A stretch of DNA of 64,000 nt from the IMG/VR virus record IMGVR_UViG_3300045988_006728; one strand, written 5' to 3'. Both the position numbers and the translations under genes were made by a program. Numbering within the stretch: the first letter of the stretch is position 1; each line of letters begins with the position of its first letter. Shown here piece after piece: positions 4,291 to 52,181 of this stretch. The notes beneath the pieces are model-generated. The model was not told where the DNA came from. It did not search any database and was given only the letters and a program-made list of their open reading frames with translations. This stretch comes from a virus. Taxonomy: Duplodnaviria > Heunggongvirae > Uroviricota > Caudoviricetes.

Positions 4291-4303
4291 AAGTCTTATT
4301 AGG

Positions 4304-5115: not shown

Positions 5116-5116
5116 T

Positions 5117-5193: not shown

Positions 5194-5200
5194 AATTAAT

Positions 5201-5276: not shown

Positions 5277-5282
5277 GACATT

Positions 5283-5358: not shown

Positions 5359-5364
5359 ATTAGT

Positions 5365-30363: not shown

Positions 30364-30909
30364 TCAAAAGTGTCCTTTCACTTGTGGAACATAAATTTCA
30401 AAAGTTGCTTTACCATCCTCTGATGGTTTTGACTGTACCTTTGTAAATACACGGTTATCATACAGCTTCTCAAAGAAGTTTTCAAAAGGTAAATGCACAG
30501 TGGCCTCTTCAGTAACTTTATGGAAAACTGTATGGAAAACTACACCAGCATACGGTAAAGCATTGACAAGGACACCTGCACCACCAATTACAAAGACATC
30601 TTCATCAATAGAGCTATCAAGATAGTTCAAAAATGCTCCAAATGACTCTTTACTGGCTTTAGCATACATTACATCATCTTTGCCAAAGTCTATACCTAAG
30701 TATGGTACAGAATTTGTTAAGATGAGGTTTGCACGTTCTGGTAGAGGTTTACTACCCAGAGTCTTAAAAGTCTCATTACCCATGACTACTAAGTTATTTT
30801 TAGTGAGTCTCTTAAACTCTTGCATGTCCTGTTTATGTCGAGGCCACGGCATACCAGTTGGAGTACCAAACTCCCCATTTTCACCACTTGCAAAGATTAA
30901 TTTAATCAT
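30364..30909 (-). CDS. frd: Dihydrofolate reductase
   Basis: 181 aa; IFASGENGEFG...MPW...VVMGNETFKTL pattern; adjacent to thyA. Confidence 0.75.
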   Translation of the reverse strand: MIKLIFASGENGEFGTPTGMPWPRHKQDMQEFKRLTKNNLVVMGNETFKTLGSKPLPERANLILTNSVPYLGIDFGKDDVMYAKASKESFGAFLNYLDSSIDEDVFVIGGAGVLVNALPYAGVVFHTVFHKVTEEATVHLPFENFFEKLYDNRVFTKVQSKPSEDGKATFEIYVPQVKGHF

Positions 30910-33554: not shown

Positions 33555-34655
33555 CTATTCATAATCCCTAATAACTAACCCGACAGGGAACTGTAAAGAA
33601 CCCTTACGAGTCATCTTCTGAAACTGAACCGTTAAAGGCTTCCCGATAAACTCTTCAGGATGTTCAGCAAGATACTGTTTCTTCTCGTGTGTAGTCTTCC
33701 ATGAGACATCTACAAAGACGTTAGGAAGCGTCTCTACAACGAACTTACCATGACCACGTTTATCGGTCTTGACACCAGTAACTTTAAACTCTTCAGTGTG
33801 CATCTTCTTGTGCTTAATCAAGAAGTATGAACGGTGACTACACTCGTAGAAAGATTCTTCAGAGATTGAACGGTACATTGCACCTTCAAACTTAGCTTCA
33901 ACCCACTTATCATGGGCTTCATCAAACTCTTCCCAAGAATTTACACGGATAGTCTGTACAGGAACAACTCTACAGGTATCCCCAAGCTCAACAATTGGTG
34001 AATTATCAATAACTTCACGACGCTCAGGCCAAGTTTTTGAATTGTCGCAGATATCATACCAGTAGAATTTAAGAAGGTGACGGTCTGGATTGTCAGCATT
34101 CTTAATCATAGATACAATATCTTCTAAGTCCCAACCATGAGCATAAATCTCTCCATCAAAGTCTTCCACTTGCGGATGTAATTTAAGCAACAAAAGCAAA
34201 TCTGGGATTAGTTCTGTTGGAACGTTGTAAACAGTATTCTCACGAGAATAGGCTGTGAAACTAACTGAATCAGCATCTCTTGAAATCCTACAACGTACAC
34301 CATCAAGTTTTGGTTGAGCATCAGCAGGGAACTTCAGATACTTTGCATGGCTAACCTTTGCAGCATCATGAGCAAGCTGTACACCTACCTTCTCAGTATT
34401 CTGTGCAGATTCTTTTGTATAAGCATAACCTTTACGGTCAACTTGCTTTTTATACTTAGCAGCAACTTCAAAGAGAGCTTGCTGTTCAGCGTTACGCTCA
34501 TTCTTTTTACCGATGTTCTTAGGCTCTGCTGTATACTCTTCAAACATCATCTTGCCATTCTCTTTACCGTAGGTTGTAATAACTTTGTCACCTACAGCAA
34601 CACATGACCAGACGTTAAAAGAGCCGTCTTTATTTTGTTTGTACAGAATTGTCAT
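33555..34655 (-). CDS. ATP-dependent DNA ligase
   Basis: 366 aa; adenylation motif I PKLDGVRC (KxDG). Confidence 0.7.
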   Translation of the reverse strand: MTILYKQNKDGSFNVWSCVAVGDKVITTYGKENGKMMFEEYTAEPKNIGKKNERNAEQQALFEVAAKYKKQVDRKGYAYTKESAQNTEKVGVQLAHDAAKVSHAKYLKFPADAQPKLDGVRCRISRDADSVSFTAYSRENTVYNVPTELIPDLLLLLKLHPQVEDFDGEIYAHGWDLEDIVSMIKNADNPDRHLLKFYWYDICDNSKTWPERREVIDNSPIVELGDTCRVVPVQTIRVNSWEEFDEAHDKWVEAKFEGAMYRSISEESFYECSHRSYFLIKHKKMHTEEFKVTGVKTDKRGHGKFVVETLPNVFVDVSWKTTHEKKQYLAEHPEEFIGKPLTVQFQKMTRKGSLQFPVGLVIRDYE

Positions 34656-35760: not shown

Positions 35761-36324
35761 TCAACTTAGTTTTGCAAACTCTCCGTGGAGTTTAATAGCA
35801 GCTTCACAGTAAGCTTTATGGGCTTCTTCTGGTGTGTCAAACATACCAAGATGATAGTTTTTACCTTGTAAACGTATCATTGCTCGAAACCTTTTACTTA
35901 TCTTCTGTACACCTTTTGGCAACCCAGATGGGGACTTTCTTGACCGATTGCAAGAGTTTTGTGAAGCTGTACAAACCCTTAAATTCAAGTACCTATTGTC
36001 CCAACCGTCCCCATTCTTATGGTCAACCTGTAAGTTTTTATCAGGCAGGTATCCATCCACATATAGTATTGCTAGACGGTTAGCTTGGTAGCCTTTACCA
36101 TCAAGCAATAACTGAACAGACTTGTGACCATCTGTGTTTATCCTATAATTTCCTGCCTTTTTACCTCCAAAACGAGAGTTGAAGTTCTTATTGCCTCGTG
36201 ATACCGGCTCTCTAAACTTCCAAGTAAAGACCCCTGTTTCGGGGTCGTAGTCCAATAGCTCCTTAAGACGAATTTCTGTAATCATTTCAACACCATCAAT
36301 GTACTTCCAACCAGCTCTTACCAA
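35761..36324 (-). CDS. HNH homing endonuclease with AP2-type DNA-binding domain
   Basis: 187 aa; HNH region QVDHKNGDGWDNRYLNLRVC...N.CN; overlaps the 3' end of the polymerase gene by 29 nt; paralog of 45864-46388. Confidence 0.7.
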   Translation of the reverse strand: MVRAGWKYIDGVEMITEIRLKELLDYDPETGVFTWKFREPVSRGNKNFNSRFGGKKAGNYRINTDGHKSVQLLLDGKGYQANRLAILYVDGYLPDKNLQVDHKNGDGWDNRYLNLRVCTASQNSCNRSRKSPSGLPKGVQKISKRFRAMIRLQGKNYHLGMFDTPEEAHKAYCEAAIKLHGEFAKLS

Positions 36325-38995
36325 CCTTACCTGTGCCAGTTACAAGCGTCTCACTCTTCAAACCTAAATTCTTAGATGCCTGACCATACATCCAGTCAGT
36401 TATGGCTTTCACTTCTTGAGTCATACTTTCTGGACATTCCCAACTGTTTTCATCGTGGTATGCCAGCAAAAGCCTAGCACCAATTGCTGGTTTTCGTCCA
36501 TTTAATTTTGTCAACCCTTCTTCACATGCTCTTCTACAAGCAAGGTTAATTGCCTCATTTTGAATCTGAGCCTCCGAACCCATGAGCAAATAATTCAATA
36601 ACTTATGTGGAGATTTACACCACAACCAAGCTCCAGCAACCTTTACAAAACCCCCTTTAGAGATTGCAGCAGTCTTACCAAACACCTCTTCAAGTGCCTT
36701 TTTAGTTGCTTTGTAGTCAGCTTCCAAGTCATCTAACAGCTTCTTAATTTTAGGCAAACGGATAAAGTAAGTCTGTTTAGTCAGCGCACCTTCCTGAGTA
36801 GTTGCAGCCTTAATCGTCTTAGCAAACTTCTCATCACCTGCACCGAACAGCAGTGCATAGATACCATTCTTAGCTTTCTTACGGCCTTTGCTAATCTCAT
36901 GAAGAAGATTCTCATCCTGAGTAGCTCGACAAGTCAAGATATCCTGCTCATCATTCAAGCTAAAGTAAATACTGTTCAATGTATGTGCATCAGTCCCTGA
37001 ATAGACAACGTACAGGTCATTCTCAGAGTCATAGCGAAGGTACTTATCAATCTCTGGGTTGAGGTACTCATCAAAATGTTTGCAGTAATAGCGTCCATCT
37101 TCTTGACGAATGAACTCAATTTCTTCTTTACCTTGCGTTACCGCTTTGGTGAAGTCTTTATCACCCATAAAGTTACAAAGAAGAACTAGCTGGGCTGAGT
37201 TCATATCTACAGAGACAACGTTAGTACCTTCCTCACAAATCCATACTGCCCTCATTGGTTCTCCATAGACAGCAGCACCAGACGGTACGTTTACAATACC
37301 ATACTGTGTCATACGTCCAGTTGAAGTACCAAACACCATTGCACCAGCACTAAGGCGACCATCAGGACGAATCTGGTTAAGCCAACCTTTTTCATCATCC
37401 TTTGAGTTCTCAATAGTTCTGCGTCGGTGCATCAAAGTATAGTACTTAGCAATCTTCTGTCCAAGCTCACCTTCAATCGTATCATAAGATGATTCAGTAA
37501 GTTTTGGTGAAGTACGGATTAAGCAAGGTTCAAGCAAATCTGTGTATTTCTTCACAGACCAGTTATGCTCGATGTACTGTACACCTTCATGTTCAACATA
37601 ACTCAAACCACACCGCTCAACCATTTCCTGCCACTTAGGATGCTTTGTAATCATCTTTTTATTGTCTTTGAAACGACAAACTTTGACAGGGCGACCATCT
37701 GAGTCTTTCTTGTAATTCCAGTCATCTGGAACCCAACCAACTGATTTCAAGTAGTCTTTAACAACTGCTACCTGAGTCATACGAGAAACTTCAAACTCAA
37801 TTGGTGTATATGGCGCATCAATCAAACCTGTGTAGCGACTTGACTCAAGTTCAAAGTGGTTAACAACGTGGCTGTTATAGTACTTCACAGTTTTGACTGT
37901 TTTTACTGGTTTCCAGTCTTTGCATTTCTTACCAATCTTTGCGTTCAACTCATTGCAAATTGCACGAGCATCCTTCATTGCTACAAAACCCTCCTTGTAC
38001 TCTTCACCAGTTACAGAGTTGGTTGGTGTATAGCAATTTCTCTTTTCAATGTTAAAAATCTTTGTAGTTGGCTTACCAAATGGTTTGATTTCATAAGTCT
38101 GCATCTCACCATTACGCACCTGCTGACGATACTTCGTCTTAGGGTACTTGGTAATTCTTTTCAGTCCATCTGCATGACCAAATGCTTCAACATACTCATT
38201 CCAAGCTTTTGCAAACTCTTCTCCAGTGACTTTACCTTTGGTCTTAATAGTTGGAGGTAGATGCGGTTCAACTTCTGAAGCAAGCTCATTAGTCAACTTG
38301 TCAAGTTCCTTTACATGGAACTCCATAAGCTCTTTATCAGCTTTCCAGCCATTGATAGCTTGTTGACTCATCCAGAAAGATGTTTCTTTAGCTCGCATGT
38401 AGGTTTCATAAGTGTCTATGCCACACTTCTTAAGCTTGAGATATTCATTATCAAGTGCCCGTTTAGTTTTGGCGTTAATACGGATATCTTCTACAACACG
38501 AGTGAAGATTTCTGCATTCCACACACCCCAATGTTCAATCTCTGGTTTACGAACACCAACACGAGCACCCCATGCAGCCAAACCATGAGCACCTTTATAG
38601 CCCTTTGGAGTTGGTCTATCCATCCACTGAACACGAGACTGGATAAGAGAATCCTGAAAGAAATTACTCCACGGTTTACACTTTGGATTATCAAAGTTCC
38701 ATAAATCAGGTGCAATGTGATTGAAAACCCACCAGTCATAACCGAGACCATTATGGATGCAAAGACGTTTTGCCTTTAACGCAAACTCAATGCCTTCACG
38801 TAAGCCACCCTTAATGTACTTGGTATACTTGTGACCGAGGATAGGCTCATCTGTAAAGACCCATACAGGCGGCTCTTCATCGTCAGATTTATAGTCTGCG
38901 AAAGCCATTACGTGCACTTTAGTGAACTCAAGGAGTAAACCATCAGTTTCTGTATCACCAACTAAATGTAAGTTTTTAAAATCTACGTTTTCCAT
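36296..38995 (-). CDS. DNA polymerase, family A, with 3'-5' exonuclease domain
   Basis: C-terminal motifs VVSVDMNSAQL (A), KKAKNGIYALLFGAG (B) and LLAYHDE (C); likely start at 38995 with a GAGGGAG RBS (track ORF extends to 39025). Confidence 0.8.
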   Translation of the reverse strand: MENVDFKNLHLVGDTETDGLLLEFTKVHVMAFADYKSDDEEPPVWVFTDEPILGHKYTKYIKGGLREGIEFALKAKRLCIHNGLGYDWWVFNHIAPDLWNFDNPKCKPWSNFFQDSLIQSRVQWMDRPTPKGYKGAHGLAAWGARVGVRKPEIEHWGVWNAEIFTRVVEDIRINAKTKRALDNEYLKLKKCGIDTYETYMRAKETSFWMSQQAINGWKADKELMEFHVKELDKLTNELASEVEPHLPPTIKTKGKVTGEEFAKAWNEYVEAFGHADGLKRITKYPKTKYRQQVRNGEMQTYEIKPFGKPTTKIFNIEKRNCYTPTNSVTGEEYKEGFVAMKDARAICNELNAKIGKKCKDWKPVKTVKTVKYYNSHVVNHFELESSRYTGLIDAPYTPIEFEVSRMTQVAVVKDYLKSVGWVPDDWNYKKDSDGRPVKVCRFKDNKKMITKHPKWQEMVERCGLSYVEHEGVQYIEHNWSVKKYTDLLEPCLIRTSPKLTESSYDTIEGELGQKIAKYYTLMHRRRTIENSKDDEKGWLNQIRPDGRLSAGAMVFGTSTGRMTQYGIVNVPSGAAVYGEPMRAVWICEEGTNVVSVDMNSAQLVLLCNFMGDKDFTKAVTQGKEEIEFIRQEDGRYYCKHFDEYLNPEIDKYLRYDSENDLYVVYSGTDAHTLNSIYFSLNDEQDILTCRATQDENLLHEISKGRKKAKNGIYALLFGAGDEKFAKTIKAATTQEGALTKQTYFIRLPKIKKLLDDLEADYKATKKALEEVFGKTAAISKGGFVKVAGAWLWCKSPHKLLNYLLMGSEAQIQNEAINLACRRACEEGLTKLNGRKPAIGARLLLAYHDENSWECPESMTQEVKAITDWMYGQASKNLGLKSETLVTGTGKVGKSWLEVH

Positions 38996-39054
38996 TTTTA
39001 CTCCCTCTAAAATCATTAACCTCATACATTACTGCAAAAAATTATAAAAAGCAA

Positions 39055-39095
39055 GTTGACAATGCACTTGACAAGGTGTTAATCTTTGCGAAGTG
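39055..39095 (+). promoter_or_regulatory. Promoter with duplicated TTGACA and conserved CTTGACAAGGTG 12-mer in a divergent AT-rich control region
   Basis: Same TTGACA-N6-TTGACA architecture as in the terminal repeat; ACTTAAAAGGTT motif follows at 39106. Confidence 0.45.
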
Positions 39096-39252
39096 GGTTT
39101 TTACTTAAAAGGTTACTTAACAGTTTAACTATACAGATACTTTAAAACTCTTAAAAGATTATTTAATAGCTTTTAAAAAGCTTTAAAGTATAACGTATAG
39201 AATACGTTAAGATAAAAGATTAAAACTTAATAGTTACTTAAAAGAGGCTTAC

Positions 39253-39675
39253 ATGCAGAAAATGTTTGTTCACCCAGACATAGCTGACTTTGTTAGAGCT
39301 TTGCAGAAGTTGGAAGAACTTGACATTGCTGCTCAACGGGAATATGCTCACCATCACAGGAGAATGGTTGATATACAACATGAAATAGAGTTGTCTGAAA
39401 ACTATGAAGATGACTTAAAATGCTCTGTATTTGAGCATATGAAAGATGTTGCTACAGCTAGACGTAAAGCTAAAGACACAGTTGCTTTACTAGATTCTCT
39501 TAAAAAGAGGTTGCAAAGTGGTACAGACTTGTGTAATCTAGCGTCACTGATTAACGATGTTGAAACTTCTTGGGATAGGCACTATTATCCACGTTCTGAA
39601 AAGACACTTGACTTTTCTTCATCAGAAAACTTAAAATGTTCTAGAAAGAAACTTAACCAACTGAGAGAGAAATAA
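39253..39675 (+). CDS. Hypothetical protein
   Basis: 140-aa ORF. Confidence 0.4.
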   Translation: MQKMFVHPDIADFVRALQKLEELDIAAQREYAHHHRRMVDIQHEIELSENYEDDLKCSVFEHMKDVATARRKAKDTVALLDSLKKRLQSGTDLCNLASLINDVETSWDRHYYPRSEKTLDFSSSENLKCSRKKLNQLREK

Positions 39676-39676
39676 T

Positions 39677-40477
39677 ATGAATATCAATGTAGAAAAGATG
39701 CTTGAAGAAAAAGGTATTAACGAAGCATTTTTAATCAATGCCGTAGAAAGCATGGCTATGATTCTTCGTGGGAACAACTACACAGAACAGTTTATGCCTG
39801 CAAGCTACAACTTGCCTGAAGACAAGTCTGATAACGGTGCTTTTGCAGAACAGGTCAACATGATGCTTTGTGACAAAAAACTTGCTTTAGCATCTATTGT
39901 TGTAGGTGTCGATGCTCTTGCAGAGTTCATTTTTTATGAGATGCAGAAAAATGACTATATTGCCATGACCTCTGAAGAAAAAGACTCACTACTGCTCTTA
40001 GATAATAATGAGCTAATTGACCTGTTAATTTCGTCAACGAGTGCTGTTATGGCTGCGCTTGAGAAGCGCATGGAAGAGAAACTTTCACGATATGAAAAAC
40101 TTGATTGGGGCGTAGAAGAATTAAACCCACGAATCAAAGAGATTATACAGCAAACTAAAGAGTCTTTGGAAGAAGCTGTTGAAAATGACTCTGTAGCTGA
40201 TATAGAACCACTTCAGGTGAAAGTTACACTGATGATTCCAGCTATCTCCACGATGATGAAAATCGTTGCACTAATCCAACTTTCACAGATGATGGGTGTG
40301 AGTATTGAGTTAATTGAGGAGATGACTGGTGGCGTTAGTATGCAAGCAATCAATGATGTTTTGGTGAACATTGGTGCTTCAATCATTGAAGAGAAACTAC
40401 GCATTAACTTCGGTGATGATTTTGTGAAGCAAATCTCAGCTATGGCTGAAAAAGAGTCTGCTGAGCAACTGCACTAA
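39677..40477 (+). CDS. Hypothetical protein
   Basis: 266-aa ORF followed by a terminator hairpin. Confidence 0.4.
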   Translation: MNINVEKMLEEKGINEAFLINAVESMAMILRGNNYTEQFMPASYNLPEDKSDNGAFAEQVNMMLCDKKLALASIVVGVDALAEFIFYEMQKNDYIAMTSEEKDSLLLLDNNELIDLLISSTSAVMAALEKRMEEKLSRYEKLDWGVEELNPRIKEIIQQTKESLEEAVENDSVADIEPLQVKVTLMIPAISTMMKIVALIQLSQMMGVSIELIEEMTGGVSMQAINDVLVNIGASIIEEKLRINFGDDFVKQISAMAEKESAEQLH

Positions 40478-40538
40478 GTCTTTATAAATCTTACAAGCCT
40501 CCTTAGTTGGGGGCTTTTTAGTAATTAAGGGAGATAAA

Positions 40539-41282
40539 ATGAGTAATATTATCGCATTTACTGGAAAGGCACGTTCTGGAAAAGACACCTCATGTTCTAT
40601 TGTGAAGAACATCTTAGAGGATGAGTATGGCTACAATGTTGCTGTAATGGCCTTTGCAGACAACCTTAAACTATCTGCATCAAAGATATTTGACTTGACT
40701 TGGAATGACCTGTACGGTGAAACTAAAGAGACTCCACAGGTTTTTGACTTATCATACTCTGAACTGATGTTTAAAGTTACGGAAGCTATGGAGTTCACCT
40801 TCAGAGATGAACGTTACCATATGGACTTCAAGCTTATGTCAGAGTTAACCGGACGATTAATCATGGAGCTTAAGAAGGTTGCTAAACCGACTCTATTGAC
40901 ACGTCTGGGGTTTAGTAAAAAGTATAAATTCTCATCAAGACAAATTCAACAGATTTGGGGTACTGAAGTTGTCCGTAAAGTAATGGGCGACAAGTTCTGG
41001 TCTAAAGACCTTGAAAAAAGAATGGTTAGATTCCATGAAATGTGCTCACTTAGAAATCAATATGGTTTTGTCTTAATCAGTGATTTAAGATTTGACTCTG
41101 AAGCTGAATGGCTGAGTAGATTTGCACACCAAACTATTGAAGTAAAAAGAGACAATGTGGACAAAGTTTCATCACATGTTTCAGAAAATGGGATTTCTAC
41201 AAAATATGAGCGTGACATTATTCATAATAATGGTACTCTTGCAGACCTTGAGAACAAGCTAAGAGCCATCATTAAAGTTTAA
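40539..41282 (+). CDS. Deoxynucleoside monophosphate kinase
   Basis: 247 aa; N-terminal P-loop AFTGKARSGKDT matches the phage dNMP kinase signature as recalled. Confidence 0.7.
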   Translation: MSNIIAFTGKARSGKDTSCSIVKNILEDEYGYNVAVMAFADNLKLSASKIFDLTWNDLYGETKETPQVFDLSYSELMFKVTEAMEFTFRDERYHMDFKLMSELTGRLIMELKKVAKPTLLTRLGFSKKYKFSSRQIQQIWGTEVVRKVMGDKFWSKDLEKRMVRFHEMCSLRNQYGFVLISDLRFDSEAEWLSRFAHQTIEVKRDNVDKVSSHVSENGISTKYERDIIHNNGTLADLENKLRAIIKV

Positions 41283-41477
41283 AAGAGAGAATGAAGATGA
41301 GAGTAAAAGACAATTTTAAAGTTATTGACCACCGTTTAGTGGAACTCTCATCTCTTTCCAATGAGGTAATGATTGAACGTCTTAAGAGAGTTGAATCACG
41401 AAGGAAAGAGATTGCAGATGAAATTCATGAACTGGACAAGATTGAAAATGGATTGAAGGCAGAACTACAACGAAGAG

Positions 41478-43469
41478 GTGCTAATGTCTAAAGGTCGTAA
41501 ATTGAAAGAGGCTGGTCAGTTTGTTGGTCATTGCGCATGTCCACGTTGTGGTTCATCAGATGCTGGTTCAATCTATCATCATGACGATGATTCTTATTCA
41601 ATGACTTGCTTTAGTTGTAACAAAGGTTTCCCAGAGTGGGATTTTGATAAAGGACAAATCGTGAGCACTTATTCTACTGGTTCAGACAATAAAAACCGTA
41701 CTTTCCGTGGAATGGATTTAGACGATGTGAAAGAAAACCTTGAAGCAATGGACTTAAAGGATAGGAAGATTCCTGCAAAAGTCCTTGAACGCTTAGGTAT
41801 CAAGGTTGACATTGACAGTGACGGTGAAATTGATGCGCACTTCTATCCAACTTACAAACGTAATGAAGATGGTAAGCTAGAACATGTTGGCTACCGTGTT
41901 CGTCACCGTTACCCAGAAGACCATCCAAAAGAGCACCTACGTGGTAAGTTAAAAGACTTTTCTGGTGGTGTTGGAGACATTAAAGGTGAACTAGCAATGT
42001 TCGGTTCATGGATTGCTCCAGAAGGTGGTAACCGTCTATTCATCTGGGAAGGTGAGATGGAATGTGCGACAGCAATCTATATGACTTCTCTTGCGATTAA
42101 GGACAAGTCTCGTCGTAAGAATTACTGTCACGTATCTGTTCCATCAGGTGCAAACATTAAGTCTATCAAAGACAACTATCAGTACATCACATCATTTGAT
42201 GAGATTTACTTGTGCTTTGATAACGATGAAGCAGGTGCTAAAGCTACCAAAGAGGCTGCTGGTATCCTACCTATTGAGAAGGTTCGCTTATTCCAGTATC
42301 CAGAAGGTGTAAAAGACCTTAACGAGTGGTGGACAAAGTTCTATAAAGAGAAAGATACAGTTCTGGAAGGATTTAAGCAGCGTATCTACAATGCACCTCG
42401 TTACTGTCCTGCTGGTATCAAGAACTTTGCAGACGGTTTTGAGGCAATGAAGAATCGTGGTCAGATTCCATTGATTCCTTTCCCAGAATCTTTCGGGGAT
42501 TTGAACAGGCTGACTTATGGTGGTTACGGTTTAGGTGAGATTACAACTCTGGCAGCACCATCTTCAGTGGGTAAATCTGCATACACTCGTGAAATGATTT
42601 ATACTGCTTGGAAGGAAACCGATTACAATATTGGTGTAATTCCAGTTGAAGATACCTATGAAGAGTTGATGGAGATGCTCTGTGCAATTCACCTGAGCAA
42701 GCAGATTTCTGAGATTCCTTATGACGAACGTGATTGGGATGAATTGAAGGAAGCACACGCAGAACTATCTAAAGGTCGTCGTATCCACATCGTAGACCAT
42801 CAAGGGGCAATTGACCAAGATAACTTGCTGGAGTTTGTTGACTATCTTGTTAATAGTTTAGACTGTAAGATTATTATTCTTGACCCTATTACATTGGCCC
42901 TGTCACGTTCAGATACGGATGAAGAGGAAGTTTTATCTGAGCTATTGCGTCGTTGCAAACGCTACCAGTACGCACAGGTGAACGTCTGTCACGTTCGTAA
43001 GAGTGCAGGTGGTCAGAAGGCTAACTCCGAAGGTGGAGATATCTCTGAAGAGGATATTAAAGGTTCTGGTGCGTATTTCCAGATTTCTATGAACAACATT
43101 CTGTTAATGCGTAACAAGGTTGACCCAGACCCTGTTAAGAAAAACTTGACAAAAATCAAGTTAACTAAGTGTCGTCGTCATGGTAAGTCAACAGGTATTG
43201 CTGGTCATACTTGGTACAATCCAGATACAGGACGTCTTATCAAAGCTTCTGGATGTGGTGTTGATATTGATGGTGCAGCAGAAAATATTCGCCAGCAGTT
43301 TGGTATTGGTGAAGCTGAAGACCATTACGATGACTCTTTGCCACATTATGAGGACGAAGTGTTTGACCGTGAGACTGGTGAAGTCTATACTGAAGAGCAG
43401 CGTCAAAGCTCAACGATTCCACCTGTATTAAGTGAGGATGCAGATGACTGCCCGTTCGAAACTGAGTGA
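41478..43469 (+). CDS. Bifunctional DNA primase-helicase (T7 gp4-like)
   Basis: Zn-binding CACPRCG...CFSCN, TOPRIM region (FIWEGEMECATAI, CFDNDEAGAKA), helicase Walker A APSSVGKS and Walker B IIILD. Confidence 0.8.
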   Translation: MLMSKGRKLKEAGQFVGHCACPRCGSSDAGSIYHHDDDSYSMTCFSCNKGFPEWDFDKGQIVSTYSTGSDNKNRTFRGMDLDDVKENLEAMDLKDRKIPAKVLERLGIKVDIDSDGEIDAHFYPTYKRNEDGKLEHVGYRVRHRYPEDHPKEHLRGKLKDFSGGVGDIKGELAMFGSWIAPEGGNRLFIWEGEMECATAIYMTSLAIKDKSRRKNYCHVSVPSGANIKSIKDNYQYITSFDEIYLCFDNDEAGAKATKEAAGILPIEKVRLFQYPEGVKDLNEWWTKFYKEKDTVLEGFKQRIYNAPRYCPAGIKNFADGFEAMKNRGQIPLIPFPESFGDLNRLTYGGYGLGEITTLAAPSSVGKSAYTREMIYTAWKETDYNIGVIPVEDTYEELMEMLCAIHLSKQISEIPYDERDWDELKEAHAELSKGRRIHIVDHQGAIDQDNLLEFVDYLVNSLDCKIIILDPITLALSRSDTDEEEVLSELLRRCKRYQYAQVNVCHVRKSAGGQKANSEGGDISEEDIKGSGAYFQISMNNILLMRNKVDPDPVKKNLTKIKLTKCRRHGKSTGIAGHTWYNPDTGRLIKASGCGVDIDGAAENIRQQFGIGEAEDHYDDSLPHYEDEVFDRETGEVYTEEQRQSSTIPPVLSEDADDCPFETE

Positions 43470-43943
43470 TAGCTATAAAAGAGAGGGGTTCACACCCTTC
43501 TTTGAAGAAAAAAGTTTAAATAAATTTCATGAAGAGTGTTTGACAAAGATTGATAGGTTCTATAGAATGCTCCACATGAAATGCGATGGAGAAGTTGAAA
43601 TAGAACAACAGTTCCATCAAAGTATGATTACAGTCATCATTACACTGCCTCAGCATAATATTGGTTGGCTGTTTATAATGAAAGAAAATGTGTTTGAATA
43701 TCAAGTATATCGGAGAATATCATGAAACACTCTAAAGCATTTGAAAAAGTTTTTGGGGATTCCTTAAAAGCCACTGCTGGAAAACCAGCAAAATACTATG
43801 AAGAAAAACGTGTAAGAACTGGAAAAACTGCACGTAAAGCAGCTTCTAAAGATAAGCACAACTTCCAGTAATTAGTATTTGACAATAGAGTATCAACAAA
43901 TTAGAATTGGTACTCTTCATAAATTGAGATAGAGGTTTAAATA

Positions 43944-44801
43944 ATGTCTAAAGTTGTTAAAATGAAAGCTCCGGTAGAGAAGTACAACGGTACTGAACGT
44001 CAAACTCTGCGTTACCTGCTGAAAGATGTCTGGTTTTATTACCTGAACACTTCACCACGTCCGGGTAAAGGTAAATCTATTGACAAGAAATTCCCAGGAA
44101 AAGATTGTAACTACAGCGTATCAATTCTGGCAGAAGACGGTAACAAACTCTTTAAAGAGTTTACTAAGTCTAAGAAGAACCCAGAAGGTTGGGATAAAGT
44201 TACTACTGAAGCAGTTGATGCAGATGACTTCGAAGAGAAGTTTGGTTGCAAACCACCTTTTGAAGCAGACACTTACTACATCTTGAAAGTAAGTCGTGCA
44301 GCAGCTTATAAAGATGGTGCTGTATGGACAGCTAAACAGTCATTCCCTGTTATGCTTATTGAAGAAGTAAATGGTAAGCGTGTAGCTGTTAAACAGCCGA
44401 TGAAGAAAATTAAAGCTCAAGCATCTGATAAACACGAAGATGACAAGAACTATGATGTAATTCATCCAGATATTGCAGTTGGTAACGGTTCTTTTGGTAG
44501 TGTGATTCTTTCTACTCACTTCTACACTTTTGAGAACAATGTTCTGACAAAACCTATTCAGGAACAGTTTATCATTGATACTCTTGTACCTTACACTGGT
44601 GGTAACGGTGCTAATGGTGAACCTGAACTGGATGAAGATGAACTGGCTATGCTTGGTCTTGATGGTGTTGAAGATAACGGTGAAATCACTGAAGAAGACG
44701 CAACAGACCATAAATCTTCGAATGATTCTGATGATGGTGATGATGAAGACTTGCCAGACCCAGATGACGAAGAAGATGAAGACTTCGATACAGAAGACTA
44801 A
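43944..44801 (+). CDS. Single-stranded DNA-binding protein (putative) with acidic C-terminal tail
   Basis: 285 aa; C-terminus DDGDDEDLPDPDDEEDEDFDTED; preceded by a strong promoter (TTGACA-17-TAGAAT). Confidence 0.45.
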   Translation: MSKVVKMKAPVEKYNGTERQTLRYLLKDVWFYYLNTSPRPGKGKSIDKKFPGKDCNYSVSILAEDGNKLFKEFTKSKKNPEGWDKVTTEAVDADDFEEKFGCKPPFEADTYYILKVSRAAAYKDGAVWTAKQSFPVMLIEEVNGKRVAVKQPMKKIKAQASDKHEDDKNYDVIHPDIAVGNGSFGSVILSTHFYTFENNVLTKPIQEQFIIDTLVPYTGGNGANGEPELDEDELAMLGLDGVEDNGEITEEDATDHKSSNDSDDGDDEDLPDPDDEEDEDFDTED

Positions 44802-44863
44802 TCTCTAAAAGTTACTTTAAAGCCCTGTACTTAGTATGGGGCTTTTTCATATGGAGAGCCATA

Positions 44864-45910
44864 ATGGAGAAGTACACATTAACAAAACTTCCCGATTCAG
44901 TTACACATGTTTTTATTGACTCTGACAGTATTGCCTATAAAGGCGCTTGTGTAGTTGAGAAAGCAAAATATAAATATGTCAATAAACTCACAGCAGAAGA
45001 ATCTGAATCATTTGATAATGCAAAAGATGCTGCAAGATGGTTAGCAGACCAGAGAATCCTTGTGGAAGAGCTTGGCCTGACATTTGATGAAGATGAATGG
45101 GAAAGACAGACTTGGAAAGAAGCTAAGAGTGAAAAAGAAGCTATCATGGCTACTCAACAGGTGCTTCAGGAATGGCTTAAGATTGTTGGTAAAGAGAGAA
45201 CTTGGGTAGGTTATTTAACAGAGAAAGGTGTGCATAAACATAAAGACATTAAAGGTCTTGAGCACCAATATCAAGGTAACCGCAAAGATGCTGTCACACC
45301 AACACACTTAGTTGCTTGTCGTGAGTATCTTCTGTCAAGACCAGAGTTTAAATTGATTCTTGATGGATTTGAAGCTGACTCTATCGTTATCGCTAAAGCT
45401 GAAAAGATGGGAAAAAAGGCTGCCTTAATGAGTATTGATAAAGACCTTCGCCAAGCTGAAGGTACTTACTGCATTGATATGACCTATGAAAAATCACCTT
45501 TAATTTTCATTGCTGATAACAACGTTGGTGAAATTTGGGATTGTCCAATAAAATCGACACCAAAAGCTAAGAAGACAGTTGGTGTAGGTTTTAAATTTCT
45601 TTGTTATCAAGCTGTGGCTGGTGATAATGCGGATAATTACTTTGGTTTAAAGGGTGTTGGCAAAGCTGCTGTGATGAAGGCTCTTGAAGGGAAAACAACT
45701 TACAAAGAGTGTCTTGATGCAATTTACGAGCTATATGCTAAGAAAGACTCCTACACTTATGTATCATGGGATGGTCAAACAATTACCAGAACACCTTTAG
45801 AATTAATGCAGCAACACTTTTTCTTAGCTTATCAGGAAAGAAATAAAAAAGACGATTTTACTTTTGATAAGTATGGGTGGACACCAAATGTTAACTCAAC
45901 AAACTCTTAA
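44864..45910 (+). CDS. RNase H / flap endonuclease-like 5'-3' exonuclease
   Basis: 348 aa; segments HVFIDSDSIAYKGA and GFEADSIVIA...MSIDKDL resemble the T4 RNase H acidic clusters as recalled. Confidence 0.5.
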   Translation: MEKYTLTKLPDSVTHVFIDSDSIAYKGACVVEKAKYKYVNKLTAEESESFDNAKDAARWLADQRILVEELGLTFDEDEWERQTWKEAKSEKEAIMATQQVLQEWLKIVGKERTWVGYLTEKGVHKHKDIKGLEHQYQGNRKDAVTPTHLVACREYLLSRPEFKLILDGFEADSIVIAKAEKMGKKAALMSIDKDLRQAEGTYCIDMTYEKSPLIFIADNNVGEIWDCPIKSTPKAKKTVGVGFKFLCYQAVAGDNADNYFGLKGVGKAAVMKALEGKTTYKECLDAIYELYAKKDSYTYVSWDGQTITRTPLELMQQHFFLAYQERNKKDDFTFDKYGWTPNVNSTNS

Positions 45911-46388
45911 AGAATACCTGCACTATGACCCCGAAACAGGGGTCTTTACTTGGTTAGTTGGTAGAAGAGGTAAGGCCAAAGCTGGCTCAGTAGCAGGTCT
46001 TAAACACCATAGTGGTTATATCTATATAAAACTCTTCGGAAAAAGATATGCAGCACACAGACTGGCAGTCTTGTATATGAAAGGCTACCTCCCAAAATTT
46101 GTTGACCACAAGAATGGTATCAGGCACGACAACTGGTTCGACAATTTGAGAGAGTGTAGCAGGTCAGACAACAACTGCAATGCAGTCAAAAGAAAAGATA
46201 ATAAGTCTGGTGTGAAGGGTGTATATTACCACAAGCAAAGAGGTAGATGGGCTGCACAAGTCAAGCATAATAAAGTATGCTACCATCTAGGTTTATTTGA
46301 CTCTATCACTGAGGCTGAATCAGTTGTCAAAAAGAAAAGAGAAGAACTACATAAAGAGTTTTCAAATCACGGAGAAGCTTATGAATGA
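45864..46388 (+). CDS. HNH homing endonuclease with AP2-type domain
   Basis: 174 aa; VDHKNGIRHDNWFDNLRECSRSDNNCN; shares the N-terminal motif YDPETGVFTW with 35761-36324. Confidence 0.7.
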   Translation: MISMGGHQMLTQQTLKEYLHYDPETGVFTWLVGRRGKAKAGSVAGLKHHSGYIYIKLFGKRYAAHRLAVLYMKGYLPKFVDHKNGIRHDNWFDNLRECSRSDNNCNAVKRKDNKSGVKGVYYHKQRGRWAAQVKHNKVCYHLGLFDSITEAESVVKKKREELHKEFSNHGEAYE

Positions 46389-46882
46389 AGATTAAAGGAT
46401 TTGGCAATTGCCCTACCTATGGTCATTGGGTGTCTTTATGTGGGGAAGTTGACCCCACTAAACATTTTGGCTTTGTCTATTTAGTGCACTGTAAGAAGAC
46501 TGGACAATATTATATCGGAAAGAAACAGCTTAACAGTGTGACCAAAAGAAAAGTTGCTGGGAAGACTCGGAAGAAGGTAGTCACTAAGGAAAGTGATTGG
46601 ATGACTTACGAAACCTCTTCTGAGTATATTAAAAAAGATATTGAGAGCTTTGGAAAAGAATTTTTTGACTTTTACATTATCCAAACCTACTACACAAAAG
46701 GTGGCCTAGTCTATGGTGAAGCAAACCTTCAACATAAATTCGATGTAATGACAAAAAGGATTGACTCTAAGCTCAGACTCTTCTACAATGCCAATATTGC
46801 AGCAATTAAGTTTATTACTAAAGAAACTTATGAAGATGCTGAAAAAAGAATCCATAAGGTAATGAAAGCAAATTGTGCTTGA
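46385..46882 (+). CDS. GIY-YIG-like nuclease (putative homing endonuclease)
   Basis: 165 aa; N-terminal FGFVYLVHCKKTGQYYIGKK fits the GIY...YIG pattern. Confidence 0.4.
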   Translation: MKIKGFGNCPTYGHWVSLCGEVDPTKHFGFVYLVHCKKTGQYYIGKKQLNSVTKRKVAGKTRKKVVTKESDWMTYETSSEYIKKDIESFGKEFFDFYIIQTYYTKGGLVYGEANLQHKFDVMTKRIDSKLRLFYNANIAAIKFITKETYEDAEKRIHKVMKANCA

Positions 46883-46888: not shown

Positions 46889-47134
46889 TTGAGAGAGAAT
46901 AAAATGTTTAACAAAAGCAAAGCTGTGAGTCATGTAGCAAAAGTTGACAGTAAGATTGAAGAACTTGAGCGCATTCTTGCAAATGCTAGAGAGTCAATAA
47001 TTAAAGAAGTTGAAGCTGTTGAATCACAAATGCAGCATCTAATACTTAAACGCCAAGAGCTACGTGAGCATCTGGAATATATTGAAACACGAGAGCTAAA
47101 GGTTAACAGATTTTTAAGGAGTCCAAATGTTTAA
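46889..47134 (+). CDS. Hypothetical coiled-coil protein
   Basis: 81-aa ORF. Confidence 0.35.
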   Translation: MRENKMFNKSKAVSHVAKVDSKIEELERILANARESIIKEVEAVESQMQHLILKRQELREHLEYIETRELKVNRFLRSPNV

Positions 47135-47882
47135 CTCAAGAGAAGCAGTAAAAAACTGGAATCTTCGTTGTGGAAACACTCAAAAGCAACCTTACAGTGA
47201 TGAGTATTGGGAATCTTTAAAATCCCAGTCTCTGTGTATGCTGGAAGAAGCAAAAGAGCTTGTAAAAGCAATTGAAGAGAAAGACCCCATTGAGACACTG
47301 GATGCTCAGGCAGATTTGCAATATGTTCTTGACGGTTTGATTTACCTGTCACAACATGACCATAACGGTGCTATGAAAGCTGTTTGCCGTAATAATGACC
47401 TGAAGTACACAGATGACTATGAAGAAGCTTTAAAACGTCTTGCAGATATTGAGAAGCGTACTGGTCAAGAGTGTATTATCAGAATGTCAGTAGTTGATGG
47501 TAAAGAGTGGTATGCCATTGTTCGTGCAGCAGATGGGAAGATTATGAAGCAATCGAATCTCCCTAAAGTACAGCTTGGTGAATACATTGTAGAACTTGAA
47601 AGCCAAGAACTTTTTGTGGTAGTATCTGAGACATGCGTTATCTGCAAAGGTATTGTAGATAGTTTAAAGGATTTAGGTGTAGATGGTTTTGTAGAAGTTA
47701 ATCCAATTACCTCTAAAGCAGATAAAGACTTCTGTAAAGAGAATGGACTATGGATTGCAGACATTATCTACTATGATGGTGAGCAGTTCCATGTAACCTC
47801 ATACCCGAAACTGAATTATGATGCTAATAACCTGAAGTGCTGGTTAAAAGGGGTTGGTTATAATGGATTCACAGAACATTAA
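47127..47882 (+). CDS. MazG-like nucleotide pyrophosphohydrolase domain protein (putative)
   Basis: 251 aa; N-terminal helical EE..E...D motif cluster (LEEAKELVKAIEE...DAQADLQYVL). Confidence 0.35.
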   Translation: MFNSREAVKNWNLRCGNTQKQPYSDEYWESLKSQSLCMLEEAKELVKAIEEKDPIETLDAQADLQYVLDGLIYLSQHDHNGAMKAVCRNNDLKYTDDYEEALKRLADIEKRTGQECIIRMSVVDGKEWYAIVRAADGKIMKQSNLPKVQLGEYIVELESQELFVVVSETCVICKGIVDSLKDLGVDGFVEVNPITSKADKDFCKENGLWIADIIYYDGEQFHVTSYPKLNYDANNLKCWLKGVGYNGFTEH

Positions 47883-48563: not shown

Positions 48564-50798
48564 ATGATTAAGACAATTAAAAAATCAAACGGTACAGTAG
48601 TAAGCTTTGACCCAGAAAGACTGAATAAGTGGGCATCATGGGCAGATAAACGTGGAATTATCTGGTCAGAAGTCACTATGGAAGCTATGAAACGTGTCTA
48701 TGAGGGTTGCACTACAAAAGAGATGCACCAAGCCATGATTGATGTTTGTGTTGATAAACAAACTCAAGAGTACTCAGATATGGCTGGACGGCTACTTCTA
48801 GGAATTATCTACAAAGAAGCCTTTGGAGGCTTTACTAAGGTTCCTACGCTGGTTACCTTCGTTAAAAATATGGAGAGAGCAGGACTTTGGGAGAAGATGG
48901 ACTATTCCCAGGAAGAGCTTGAATACCTGCAAGGGTACATTGTGCACTCAAAAGATATCTCTTATGGTTATGCAGTCCTGAAACAGTTCAGAGACAAGTA
49001 TGGTATCCGTGATATTAAAACGGGAAGACTTTTTGAGTCACCACAGTTTATGTTTATGGGTATGGCTATGAAAGCCTTTGAGAAGCAACCAAAGCACCGT
49101 AGACTGCAAGATGTTATCAAGCTGTACACTTACCTATCTGACCTGAAGATTAACGCTCCTACGCCTTATTTAAACGGTTTGAGGGCAACTAAATCAGGTT
49201 ATGCGTCATGCTGCTTGATTAAGGCAAACGATACTGCTGAATCACTTGGTATTGCTGCAAAGGTTGCTTATGATATGACTACAAAGCAAGCTGGTATCGG
49301 TATGCTGATGGAGACTCGCACTATTGGTGATGGTATCCGTCAAAACACTATCGAACACATGGGTAAACTGCCTTATTACAAGCTTGTACGTTCATCTGTA
49401 GAGGCAAACAAACAGAAGAGTCGTGGTGGTTCAGCTAATAACTTCTACACTGCTCTAGACCCGCAGATTGAAGATTTACTGCGTTTGAAGCACCCTACAA
49501 CGGTTCCTTCTAAACGTATTAATGAGATGGACTACTCATTCGGCACAAACGATTATTTCTGGCAGTGTGTTCAGTATGATACAGATTGGTTGCTATTCTC
49601 TTACAAAGATGCACCAAAACTCTATGACATGTTCTACACAGCATCTGCTGATGAGTTTGCTATGGCAGTTGGTCACGCAGTACATTCAGGAGTTAAGCAC
49701 AGACGAGTCAAGGCTCGTGAAATTGCTAAGCTGTTTATTCAACAGCGTTATGCTACAGGTCGTGTGTATCCATTCTTCACTAACAACGCAAACACACATA
49801 CACCATTTAAAGAACCATTGAAGATGTCAAATCTTTGTATGGAAATTGTATTGCCAGTGTATGGTTTTGAGAAAGAGACAGACCTTTACAGAGACGATGC
49901 TGTGAAAGAGGATGGTGAGGTGGCTCTTTGCTTCCTAGCTAGTTTGGTTGCAGGGAGAATTTCAGAAGATGAATACGCTGACGTTGCTTATTATGCTCTT
50001 GCAATGGTTGACTCCGTTATTGACCTTATGGATTATCCGTATCCGTCGATGCGTAACCATGTTCAGAAGCGTCGTTCTGTTGGGATTGGCCTTACAAATG
50101 TGGCTCATTACCTTGCGAAGAACTACGTGAACTACTCTTCACGAGCAGGTAAAACGAAACTCCATGAACTGGCAGAGATGCACTCTTACTACTTACACGA
50201 AGCTTCTTTAAGACTTGCTAAAGAACGTGGTGTACCTGAGTATATGCAGTTCACTAAGTACCCTGAAGGTTGGGTTCCTCCAAAGACAGCCAACAAGAAG
50301 ATTGATGAGAAGCATGATGCAAAACTAAGATATGATTGGGATGACTTAGCACAACGTATCAAAGAAAATGGTGGAATCCGAAACTCTGTATTAGAAGCTT
50401 ACATGCCTAATGAGAGTTCTTCACTAGCAACTAATACGACAAACGGCTTGTACCCAATTCGTGACTTTATTTTAACTAAAAAGTCTGCAACTGGTAACGT
50501 GCTGTTTATTGTTCCAGATTATGAAGAGTTGAAGTATGTATATGAAATTGCTTGGGGTATTGACACCTTTGACCTGATTGATTGTTATGCAATTGTTCAA
50601 AAGTTCACTGGTCAAGCTATCTCTTCAGATTTCTATGTTGACTACGCAAAAGCTAAGAAGGTATCATTGGCTCAAGCTTTGAAGTACATGATTTATGCCA
50701 ACTCGGTAGGTATGAAAACCATGTACTACCTTAACAGTCGCATTGGTGTAGGTAAATCTGCACTGCAAGATGCTTATTGCGAGGGTTGTGGTGTTTAG
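48564..50798 (+). CDS. nrdA: Ribonucleotide reductase class I, alpha subunit
   Basis: 744 aa; N-terminal ATP-cone-like region, NLCMEI active-site segment, C-terminal CEGCGV redox pair. Confidence 0.85.
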   Translation: MIKTIKKSNGTVVSFDPERLNKWASWADKRGIIWSEVTMEAMKRVYEGCTTKEMHQAMIDVCVDKQTQEYSDMAGRLLLGIIYKEAFGGFTKVPTLVTFVKNMERAGLWEKMDYSQEELEYLQGYIVHSKDISYGYAVLKQFRDKYGIRDIKTGRLFESPQFMFMGMAMKAFEKQPKHRRLQDVIKLYTYLSDLKINAPTPYLNGLRATKSGYASCCLIKANDTAESLGIAAKVAYDMTTKQAGIGMLMETRTIGDGIRQNTIEHMGKLPYYKLVRSSVEANKQKSRGGSANNFYTALDPQIEDLLRLKHPTTVPSKRINEMDYSFGTNDYFWQCVQYDTDWLLFSYKDAPKLYDMFYTASADEFAMAVGHAVHSGVKHRRVKAREIAKLFIQQRYATGRVYPFFTNNANTHTPFKEPLKMSNLCMEIVLPVYGFEKETDLYRDDAVKEDGEVALCFLASLVAGRISEDEYADVAYYALAMVDSVIDLMDYPYPSMRNHVQKRRSVGIGLTNVAHYLAKNYVNYSSRAGKTKLHELAEMHSYYLHEASLRLAKERGVPEYMQFTKYPEGWVPPKTANKKIDEKHDAKLRYDWDDLAQRIKENGGIRNSVLEAYMPNESSSLATNTTNGLYPIRDFILTKKSATGNVLFIVPDYEELKYVYEIAWGIDTFDLIDCYAIVQKFTGQAISSDFYVDYAKAKKVSLAQALKYMIYANSVGMKTMYYLNSRIGVGKSALQDAYCEGCGV

Positions 50799-50853: not shown

Positions 50854-51111
50854 ATGAAAGATTTAATAGAAAAACATGAGCGACCTATATACTTGCTCCA
50901 CAAGCCTCGGAAAACGATGTACTATGTGAGTAGCACAGACATGATGATAAAACAAAATGATGACTCATGGGTTGCTGGTATCTCTTACATCTCTACAGCA
51001 GATGGTAAAATCTACGCAAGACCTTATGAGATGTTTAACAAAGAAAATTGGGAAGTTTTAGACAGAAAACAAGCCTTAGAAATGATAAAGAAAGGAGAAA
51101 TCACGCTATGA
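50854..51111 (+). CDS. Hypothetical small protein between nrdA and nrdB
   Basis: About 85 aa from the ATG at 50854 (track ORF 50770-51111). Confidence 0.35.
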   Translation: MKDLIEKHERPIYLLHKPRKTMYYVSSTDMMIKQNDDSWVAGISYISTADGKIYARPYEMFNKENWEVLDRKQALEMIKKGEITL

Positions 51112-52181
51112 TTAACCAGCACCCAATCTTTTTAGGTGGTGAGAGAAAAACTTTTGACTCACTTAATAAACACTACCCAAAAATCTTTGAACTTTATAAA
51201 CAACAAAAAGCACAAGACTGGTCAGAAGATGAGTTTCCTTTTGAACAATCACGTCTTGATTTTGAGAGTGTTCCAGCATCAATGTCAGGTGTAATGCTTG
51301 AGATTCTTAAGTGGCAATGGGAAGCAGACACTCAAGTTGCTAAGAGCTTGGCATTTGCCTTTGCACCTTTTATCTCTGATGACATTTATGCAACTGCAAT
51401 TATGAAGCAGTCTGAGATTGAAAACCTACATGCTCTTACTTACTCAGAGATTGTAAGACAATGTATTAAAAACCCTGAAACAATCTTAGATGAGATTAAC
51501 CAGAATGTTGCTGTGCAAGACCGATTAAAAACTGTGAATCGTGTTCTTGAAGAATTACTGGATGAAGGGATAAACTACCGACTGAGTTATGTCCGTGATT
51601 CACTTCTGGACAAAGACCCTTTACACTTCCATAAAGTGATTTTAAAAGGTCTATTTGCAGTGACTGCACTTGAAGGTATATCTTTTATGGCATCCTTTGC
51701 ATGTACTTTTGCACTTGATGCTCAAGATAAATTTCAGGGTATTGCTCAAGCTGTCCAGAAAATTATGCTTGACGAAATCCTTCACACTAAAATTGATATT
51801 GAAGTTTTAAAAGAAACTTTAAGAGATGATGAGTGGCAGAAAGCTTTTCAACAAATTCTTCCAGAGATTAAAGTAATCTTAGATGAAGTAGTTGAAAGTG
51901 AAGAGAAATGGTCGTATTATATCTTCTCCGAAGGACGTGCTGTAGTTGGCTTAAATACAAAGCTTCTCCATGAGTGGGTTTACTATAATGCTGCCCCACT
52001 GTATGACATGTTTGGCATTCCCAGAGATTTTGTAGCTCCTAAAGAACCACCTTTGAAGTACATGATTAAGAAGATGGAAATTGATAAAGAGCAGAATGCT
52101 AATCAGGAGCAACAGAACGGTGCGTACCTGTTGAATACTGTTGTAGATGATTTGAATAGTGGATTTTTAGAGGTTCCTTAA
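51108..52181 (+). CDS. nrdB: Ribonucleotide reductase class I, beta subunit
   Basis: Start taken at the ATG after AAAGGAGA RBS (track ORF starts at 51048); ferritin-like helices with E/H-rich metal-site segments. Confidence 0.75.
   Translation: MINQHPIFLGGERKTFDSLNKHYPKIFELYKQQKAQDWSEDEFPFEQSRLDFESVPASMSGVMLEILKWQWEADTQVAKSLAFAFAPFISDDIYATAIMKQSEIENLHALTYSEIVRQCIKNPETILDEINQNVAVQDRLKTVNRVLEELLDEGINYRLSYVRDSLLDKDPLHFHKVILKGLFAVTALEGISFMASFACTFALDAQDKFQGIAQAVQKIMLDEILHTKIDIEVLKETLRDDEWQKAFQQILPEIKVILDEVVESEEKWSYYIFSEGRAVVGLNTKLLHEWVYYNAAPLYDMFGIPRDFVAPKEPPLKYMIKKMEIDKEQNANQEQQNGAYLLNTVVDDLNSGFLEVP

Follow-up and report, generated by a model that had tools for sequence, protein, structure and literature searches.

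Does a tailed phage that encodes a T7-type polymerase and primase-helicase beside T4-type rII and nucleotide-metabolism genes operate a mosaic replisome, or does such a combination belong to the ordinary gene content of a known lineage? The question is raised by a viral sequence of 64,000 nucleotides (IMG/VR record IMGVR_UViG_3300045988_006728, class Caudoviricetes; this whole stretch is referred to as the window), in which an original prediction, made from the letters alone, had flagged positions 36296–45910 as a mosaic of T7-like replication proteins and T4-like accessory genes. Comparison with reference phages indicates that the window almost certainly derives from a Felix O1-like myovirus of the genus Felixounavirus (subfamily Ounavirinae), of whose genome it covers about three quarters, and that the flagged region is the standard replication module of that genus. 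Every gene that the prediction had named does exist and is backed by profile matches; the core replication module lies inside the flagged coordinates, but the ligase, thymidylate synthase and dihydrofolate reductase, ribonucleotide reductase, rII and transfer RNA (tRNA) genes all lie outside them.

Genus membership and the age of the arrangement

Aligned with Salmonella phage Felix O1 by blastn, the window matched over 95.5% of its length at 94.5% identity, in collinear high-scoring segment pairs that pass through the conventional start of the Felix O1 record at rIIA. When the flagged region was compared by megablast with 50,697 phage records, 244 of them covered at least 80% of it, the best at about 96% identity, and nearly all were Felix O1-like phages of Escherichia, Salmonella, Shigella and Citrobacter. 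Three segments that together span the whole window were 94–97% identical to Felixounavirus genomes at 92–100% coverage (among the matches listed); the demarcation used by the International Committee on Taxonomy of Viruses for genera is about 70% nucleotide identity. Genus membership was judged on the 64-kb window, and about 20 kb of the genome lies beyond it. Gene order is identical in the annotated relatives VpaE1, Mushroom, Andreotti and Felix O1, and the G+C content (GC) of the window, 37–41% throughout, fits the approximately 39% expected for Felixounavirus (39.0% in Felix O1; PMC3185647). The closest members, Felix O1, VpaE1, Mushroom, Andreotti, wV8 and Bas63, share with the window the replication module, td and frd, nrdAB with a glutaredoxin gene, nrdDG, rIIAB, a T4-type terminase and a tRNA cluster, whereas no listed phage record reaches 98% identity to it and none reaches 99% over long stretches. 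The genus membership and the gene identities are direct observations, and identity this close to a characterised genus over the whole window is what the original prediction had itself named as grounds for abandoning the region as a noteworthy mosaic.

The combination of a T7-type core with T4-type accessories has in fact been known for Felixounavirus since 2010, when the genome of Felix O1 was published (Whichard et al. 2010; PMC3185647). The enzymes given there comprise an exonuclease, aerobic and anaerobic ribonucleotide reductases, a ribose-phosphate pyrophosphokinase, a nicotinate phosphoribosyltransferase, a dihydrofolate reductase, a deoxynucleoside monophosphate (dNMP) kinase, a thymidylate synthase, a ligase, a polymerase and a primase/helicase. 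In the same paper, the 906-residue polymerase is closest to those of the podoviruses PaP3, SP6, K1E, K1-5 and T7, the primase/helicase is closest to those of T7-like phages, the ligase homologues are closest to eukaryotic ligases, and rIIAB and 22 tRNAs are reported together with the lack of a phage RNA polymerase. No single-stranded DNA (ssDNA)-binding protein (SSB) is named in it (PMC3185647).

The order of the module was the same in all relatives examined: the polymerase gene (leftward), then two open reading frames (ORFs), dNMP kinase, primase-helicase, small ORFs and the gene that we assign below to an SSB, followed by an exonuclease, a GIY-YIG endonuclease, MazG and nrdA. This order held in relatives at 44–62% identity in the SSB, down to the lowest value and including the genus Kolesnikvirus, which argues that the arrangement is old and stable rather than a recent mosaic. 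That a T7-like phage and a T4-like one recently recombined into a novel hybrid is the explanation that the gene content would invite if no reference genomes were consulted, as it mixes families known from T7 with families known from T4. We give this explanation a negligible probability and reject it, because similarity to T7 proteins is only 21–28% and the module is conserved across genera: the established genus is matched along the entire window, the arrangement is kept in other Ounavirinae genera and in metagenomic relatives and is hence ancient, GC is even, no high-identity nucleotide blocks to a T7-like or T4-like phage were seen and the arrangement had already been published.

The replication proteins compared with T7 and T4

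Apart from a generic ligase, the identifiable replication proteins of the window (polymerase, primase-helicase, predicted SSB and 5′–3′ exonuclease) are uniformly of T7 type. The family A DNA polymerase (36296–39025, minus strand; 909 residues with an N-terminal 3′–5′ exonuclease domain; Pfam DNA_pol_A, 57.8 bits against a cutoff of 34.3) found its best Protein Data Bank (PDB) match in T7 gp5 (E = 9e-11, compared with 4e-4 for Taq) and was also aligned with gp5 by BLASTP. In a four-way alignment of the window polymerase, two other Ounavirinae polymerases and T7 gp5, residues D24/E26 of Exo I, D607 of motif A, R715/K719/Y723 of motif B and H857-D858-E859 of motif C were invariant. The window protein is 205 residues longer than gp5 and carries large insertions relative to it, both in the thumb and following motif A. 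In T7 the thumb holds a domain that binds thioredoxin, the processivity factor taken from the host; the thumb insert of the window protein is larger than that of T7 and has no recognisable similarity to the T7 segment. Motif A (VDMNSAQLVLL) carries a Gln (Q612) aligned with T7 Glu480, and Gln occupies this position in all three Ounavirinae groups compared. In family A polymerases, the Glu at the position of Glu480 is the ‘steric gate’ residue.

The primase-helicase (41478–43469, plus strand; Pfam Toprim_2 and DnaB_C) is fused as in T7 gp4, with a zinc finger, a TOPRIM domain and a superfamily 4 (SF4)/DnaB-like ATPase on one polypeptide. Its best match among solved structures was T7 gp4 (E = 2e-40, PDB sequence search), and BLASTP aligned residues 15–587 with gp4A at 28% identity over 592 columns (E = 5e-45), an alignment that includes both zinc-finger Cys pairs; the Walker A motif reads APSSVGKS at residue 360. 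Annotation in relatives suggests that the start may instead lie at 41484. The exonuclease (44864–45910, plus strand; FEN family; PHROG 107, E = 8e-66; NCBIfam 5′–3′ exonuclease region of Pol I) has a weak but significant similarity to T7 gp6 (21% identity, E = 1e-6, BLASTP). The ligase (33555–34655, minus strand; 366 residues; Pfam DNA_ligase_A_M and OB_2) is indeed short and ATP-dependent, as had been claimed, but the accompanying claim of T7 likeness does not hold: BLASTP gave no significant pairwise similarity to T7 gp1.3 (E = 1.2), and its best PDB matches were Chlorella virus ligases and entry 6imj, presumably the African swine fever virus ligase.

The likeness to the T7 replisome therefore comprises a proofreading family A polymerase, a zinc finger–TOPRIM–SF4 helicase on a single polypeptide, a predicted SSB of gp2.5 fold and a FEN-type exonuclease, whereas the low protein identity noted above, a ligase unrelated to that of T7 at the pairwise level and a myovirus virion set the two phages apart. 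No single-subunit RNA polymerase, a trait of Autographiviridae, was found among the window ORFs scanned, and Felix O1 is stated to have none (PMC3185647); T7-type character is limited to the replication module.

By homology with T7, the hexameric primase-helicase would unwind DNA and prime the lagging strand, the polymerase would copy both strands, the SSB would coat the lagging-strand template, and the exonuclease and ligase would process Okazaki fragments. The module is transcribed divergently from an intergenic region of 227 bp (39026–39252), which separates the leftward polymerase gene from the rightward replication genes in the ORF layout and GC skew. The rightward arm carries two conserved proteins without assigned function (39253–39675, plus strand, the Felix O1 ORF97 homologue, PHROG 4039 of unknown function and recognised also by synteny; and 39677–40477, plus strand, discussed below), dNMP kinase, primase-helicase, SSB and FEN-type exonuclease; between the primase-helicase and SSB genes lies a small conserved ORF with no assigned function (43432–43725, plus strand; PHROG 4982). 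A scan for promoters and terminators between 38900 and 46000 gave 17 promoter-like sites against 19 expected from shuffled sequences, that is, no enrichment. One site, 43363–43391 (TTGACC-17-TATACT), is P102, a promoter proposed in the Felix O1 paper, and 37 bp upstream of the SSB gene there is a near-consensus sigma-70 promoter-like site (43879–43907, TTGACA-17-TAGAAT).

A T4-type replisome would require a family B polymerase, clamp, clamp loader, gp41, gp61 and gp32, none of which appeared in any scan of the window proteins. Both gene sets that had been described as T7-like and T4-like are thus present, but the replisome proper is not mosaic, all of its identifiable parts being of T7 type. 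What resembles T4 is rIIA (58558–60924, plus strand; PHROG 612, E = 1e-186) and rIIB (61004–62113, plus strand; PHROG 609, E = 9e-89), thymidylate synthase (td, 29463–30362, minus strand; Pfam Thymidylat_synt, E = 3e-73), dihydrofolate reductase (frd, 30364–30909, minus strand; Pfam DHFR_1, E = 7e-22), a dNMP kinase of gp1 type (40539–41282, plus strand; Pfam DNMK, E = 2e-21), nrdAB with glutaredoxin, nrdDG, a T4-type large terminase, and GIY-YIG and HNH homing endonucleases. The metabolic genes and rIIAB are accessory and stand outside the replisome.

Genes for both aerobic and anaerobic ribonucleotide reductases, also claimed originally, are present on the plus strand and assigned by Pfam: NrdA, the class I alpha subunit (48564–50798; Ribonuc_red_lgC, E = 2.5e-90); NrdB, the class I beta subunit (51048–52181; Ribonuc_red_sm), followed by glutaredoxin (52181–52423; Glutaredoxin); NrdD, the class III anaerobic enzyme (52671–54815; NRDD, E = 5e-114, and Gly_radical); and NrdG, its radical SAM activase (55868–56353; Fer4_12, E = 4e-43). 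The T4-like metabolism genes would supply deoxynucleoside triphosphates with or without oxygen, a reasonable and standard inference from NrdAB and NrdDG that has already been proposed for Felix O1.

It might be argued that T4-type parts (clamp, loader, separate helicase and primase, gp32) are encoded outside the window, in the 20 kb or so of genome not covered, and that the replisome is truly mixed. We consider this very improbable: the matching region of Felix O1 (approximately 5.4–21.5 kb) holds small hypothetical genes, a phosphatase, an endolysin and a tail protein and has no replication genes annotated, and the only replication enzymes given for that phage are the ligase, polymerase and primase/helicase (PMC3185647).

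A candidate SSB and a shared acidic tail

The remaining component of a T7-type replisome is encoded by a gene of 285 codons (43944–44801, plus strand) to which the public records sampled give no functional name. In a sample of 45 records spread over 302 matching phage genomes, it was called ‘hypothetical protein’ in 40, and in the other five it was unnamed, numbered only (gp103) or unannotated. Our literature searches found nothing linking Felixounavirus to gp2.5, or to nicotinamide phosphoribosyltransferase and nicotinamide adenine dinucleotide (NAD). Used alone in sequence-only searches, the protein returned nothing meaningful from PDB, Pfam (down to E = 10) or NCBIfam. A profile of 13 Felix-type homologues, however, recovered 63 proteins, mostly of 200–245 residues, from 1.84 billion representatives. 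In an alignment that joined the window protein and three close relatives to 49 more distant matches (53 sequences), 38 matched PHROG 112 (‘Gp2.5-like ssDNA binding protein and ssDNA annealing protein’), six matched Pfam SBB_T7 and four matched Enc34_ssDNA-bd, and the combined profile matched the T7 gp2.5 crystal structure 1je5 over 106 residues (E = 3e-8).

Structure prediction agreed with this assignment. An AlphaFold model built from the 13 close homologues only was discarded (predicted local distance difference test (pLDDT) score 43.6), and an AlphaFold2 model from the 53-sequence alignment, which itself contains gp2.5-like sequences, reached a pLDDT of 85.4, with residues 1–220 above 90 and a disordered tail. 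The top nine Foldseek matches of this model in the PDB were to DUF2815 (4klk), Enc34 SSB (5odj, 5odk and 5odl), T7 gp2.5 (1je5) and 4jg2, at probabilities of 0.97–1.00, and the next match had a probability of 0.04. In the viral model library BFVD there were 47 matches at E ≤ 0.001, some of them named ‘DNA helix destabilizing protein’ or ‘ssDNA-binding protein’. The protein thus resembles Enc34 SSB/DUF2815 (PF10991) and T7 gp2.5 (PF21265), which are its top fold matches and whose families are matched by its distant relatives, but it differs in falling below the detection threshold of both models and in its larger size, with a core of about 220 residues and a tail of 60 residues, 32 of which are D or E. 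The profile chain, the fold search and the composition of the tail all bear out the acidic-tailed, SSB-like label given by the original prediction, which we accept as correct, and we describe the protein as a predicted SSB of the gp2.5/Enc34 class.

Several observations weigh against this assignment. Alignment of the Felix-only sequences to T7 gp2.5 with hhalign was weak (probability 27% over 25 columns), and the Foldseek TM-scores of the model were modest (0.38–0.53 on the target); with so weak a direct comparison, it is through intermediate sequences, and through a model in whose construction they were used, that the protein is linked to SSBs. An alternative interpretation is that the protein is not a replicative SSB but a gp2.5-fold protein of annealing or recombination only, or an acidic DNA mimic or decoy, and that the host SSB is used for replication. 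In addition to the weak alignment and modest scores, this interpretation would accommodate the lack of Pfam, NCBIfam and PDB matches to the protein alone, its excess of about 50 residues over gp2.5, and the annealing activity that, by the name of PHROG 112, gp2.5 itself also has. We nevertheless consider it unlikely because the gene is kept between those for the primase-helicase and the exonuclease in all relatives examined, the fold matches are exclusively to SSBs of the gp2.5/Enc34 class, no second SSB candidate was found among the ORFs scanned, and the protein has a tail motif in common with the primase-helicase.

That motif raises the possibility that the predicted SSB and the primase-helicase share a partner. 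The SSB ends in …EEDEDFDTED and the primase-helicase in …EDADDCPFETE, and among the 236 open frames of the window with at least 60 residues these two alone combine an acidic run with an F-x-T end. Beyond the window, six lineages were compared, two of them named phages from other groups of Ounavirinae and four of them relatives from metagenomes; identities were 44–76% for the SSB and 66–89% for the primase-helicase. An acidic run with F-x-T-(E/A) closes both proteins in six of the seven lineages (the window and five others); the tails of phiEa21-4, for example, read IPFRTE and VPFKTE. In T7, gp4 ends in …DTDF and gp2.5 in …DGDF; the gp2.5 tail anchors on the front basic patch of the polymerase, a DTDF peptide mimicking the gp4 tail has been seen bound in structure 6P7E (PMC12339929), and titles cited in that paper describe the C-terminal Phe of gp2.5 as essential. 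The window tails are analogous but not identical to those of T7, with F-x-T-(E/A) in place of a terminal Phe; in both proteins the Phe stands 4–5 residues from the end rather than last.

By analogy with the tails of T7 gp2.5 and gp4, the SSB and primase-helicase tails would most likely dock in turn on the polymerase, and the most economical reading is that Ounavirinae may keep the tail-docking logic of T7 with a different motif. We caution that other observations speak against such docking. The Hafnia phage SarahDanielle is an exception, its SSB ending in WETN and its annotated primase-helicase having no motif; where T7 has its front basic patch, the window polymerase is basic only in part (about three Lys compared with six Lys/Arg, by eye on a BLAST alignment); and the literature searched contained no published binding or replication experiment on any Ounavirinae protein. 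We put at about even chances the more specific proposal of a T7-style Ounavirinae replisome in which lineage-specific tails would compete for one site on a polymerase bearing an unusual Gln in motif A.

Deletions, endonucleases and annotations in the rest of the window

The window begins with tRNA genes (2388–5439), followed by a rightward packaging and structural block, a leftward block at about 29.4–39.0 kb and, from 39.25 kb onwards, a rightward block that occupies the rest of the window, and the sign changes of its GC skew coincide with the boundaries of the strand blocks, including one near 38–40 kb. Two clean microhomology deletions, seen in none of the 50,697 phage records, distinguish it from its relatives. 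The first removes the NARP1 operon (Adps and Namat, annotated as prs and nicotinamide phosphoribosyltransferase in relatives, in some with an HNH gene between them), which is cleanly absent. At the junction (58027–58042; blastn against Andreotti, VpaE1 and Felix O1, and the junction sequence itself), the ribosome-binding site of prs is joined, together with ATGAAAA, to the beginning of the following ORF over an 8-bp identity (TATGAAAA), and no unbroken match across this junction was found in any of 218 matching phage records. NARP1 is an experimentally characterised anti-defence pathway of the Felixounavirus Bas63 (bioRxiv 10.1101/2024.02.11.579819); identity with the engineered NARP1 deletion mutant of Bas63 was rejected because the end points differ.

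The second deletion lies in the tRNA cluster (2388–5439, plus strand; 15 genes by ARAGORN, 13 of them confirmed by Rfam). The large tRNA set of the original prediction is therefore real, but it is reduced in comparison with the 22 genes of Felix O1. The last tRNA (5365–5439) is a chimera of the 5′ part of a tRNA-Gly and the 3′ part of a tRNA-Cys, with the crossover in the T-arm GGGTTC and two mismatches in the seven pairs of the acceptor stem (by eye); its parents in Felix O1 lie at 27224–27303 and 30105–30185 in the junction alignment. Relative to Felix O1, 2.85 kb is missing; nine tRNA genes went with it, as did one gene for an HNH endonuclease and two other ORFs. The junction was found in none of the 50,697 phage records. 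Assembly collapse was rejected as the cause of both deletions because only about 8 bp are common at each junction. Both deletions are strain-level features with some practical relevance.

Felix O1 has no match for a tail-fibre segment (27478–28655) or for several stretches of the window the size of endonuclease genes. Within the tail-fibre gene, which encodes 795 residues, the match was absent or weak at 27478–28063 and 28442–28655, and the segment is probably a swapped receptor-binding region that sets host range.

Endonuclease genes adjoin the module at both ends. One HNH-AP2 homing endonuclease (35761–36324, minus strand; Pfam HNH_3 and AP2) overlaps the 3′ end of the polymerase gene, and its stretch at 35867–36309 had no nucleotide match in Felix O1; another (45864–46388, plus strand; Pfam) overlaps the 3′ end of the exonuclease gene. 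Downstream are a SegE-like GIY-YIG endonuclease (46385–46882, plus strand) and a MazG-like NTP pyrophosphohydrolase (47127–47882, plus strand; Pfam PRA-PH). Both polA and nrdD are uninterrupted in the window, and no Rfam intron was found in it. In relatives, by comparison, a group I intron of 316 bp (Rfam score 62 bits, gathering score 50) interrupts polA of Mushroom at a site corresponding to about 36850; in polA of VpaE1 that site holds 785 bp of inserted sequence that includes an endonuclease VII ORF, and in Andreotti nrdD is interrupted, at about 53868 of the window, by 741 bp that carry a homing endonuclease.

Two annotations in relatives appear doubtful. RefSeq gives the name ‘NAD synthetase’ to the ORF at 46385–46882 in Felix O1, VpaE1, Mushroom and phiEa21-4, although it matches Pfam SegE_GIY-YIG at E = 9e-28, and the label is probably a propagated misannotation. 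The conserved ORF at 39677–40477 (PHROG 4251; no Pfam match) is called ‘minor tail protein’ in relatives, in every one of which it sits between the polymerase and dNMP kinase genes; the abstract of PMC3185647, in listing the Felix O1 virion proteins identified by proteomics, does not include the homologue Gp98, and the function of the ORF is probably a different one.

As an account of gene content, the main finding carries little weight, as it rediscovers what was published for Felix O1; the SSB assignment and the motif common to the two tails refine it modestly. A gp2.5-class SSB would nonetheless give a name to a gene that had no functional one in the records sampled, in a group of which many phages are used or proposed for the biocontrol of Salmonella and Escherichia coli. 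Without NARP1, the phage should be more sensitive than its relatives to defences that deplete NAD+, and this predicted sensitivity bears on the choice of phages for therapy and biocontrol. The shared docking motif, if true, would extend the T7 replisome paradigm to a subfamily of myoviruses.

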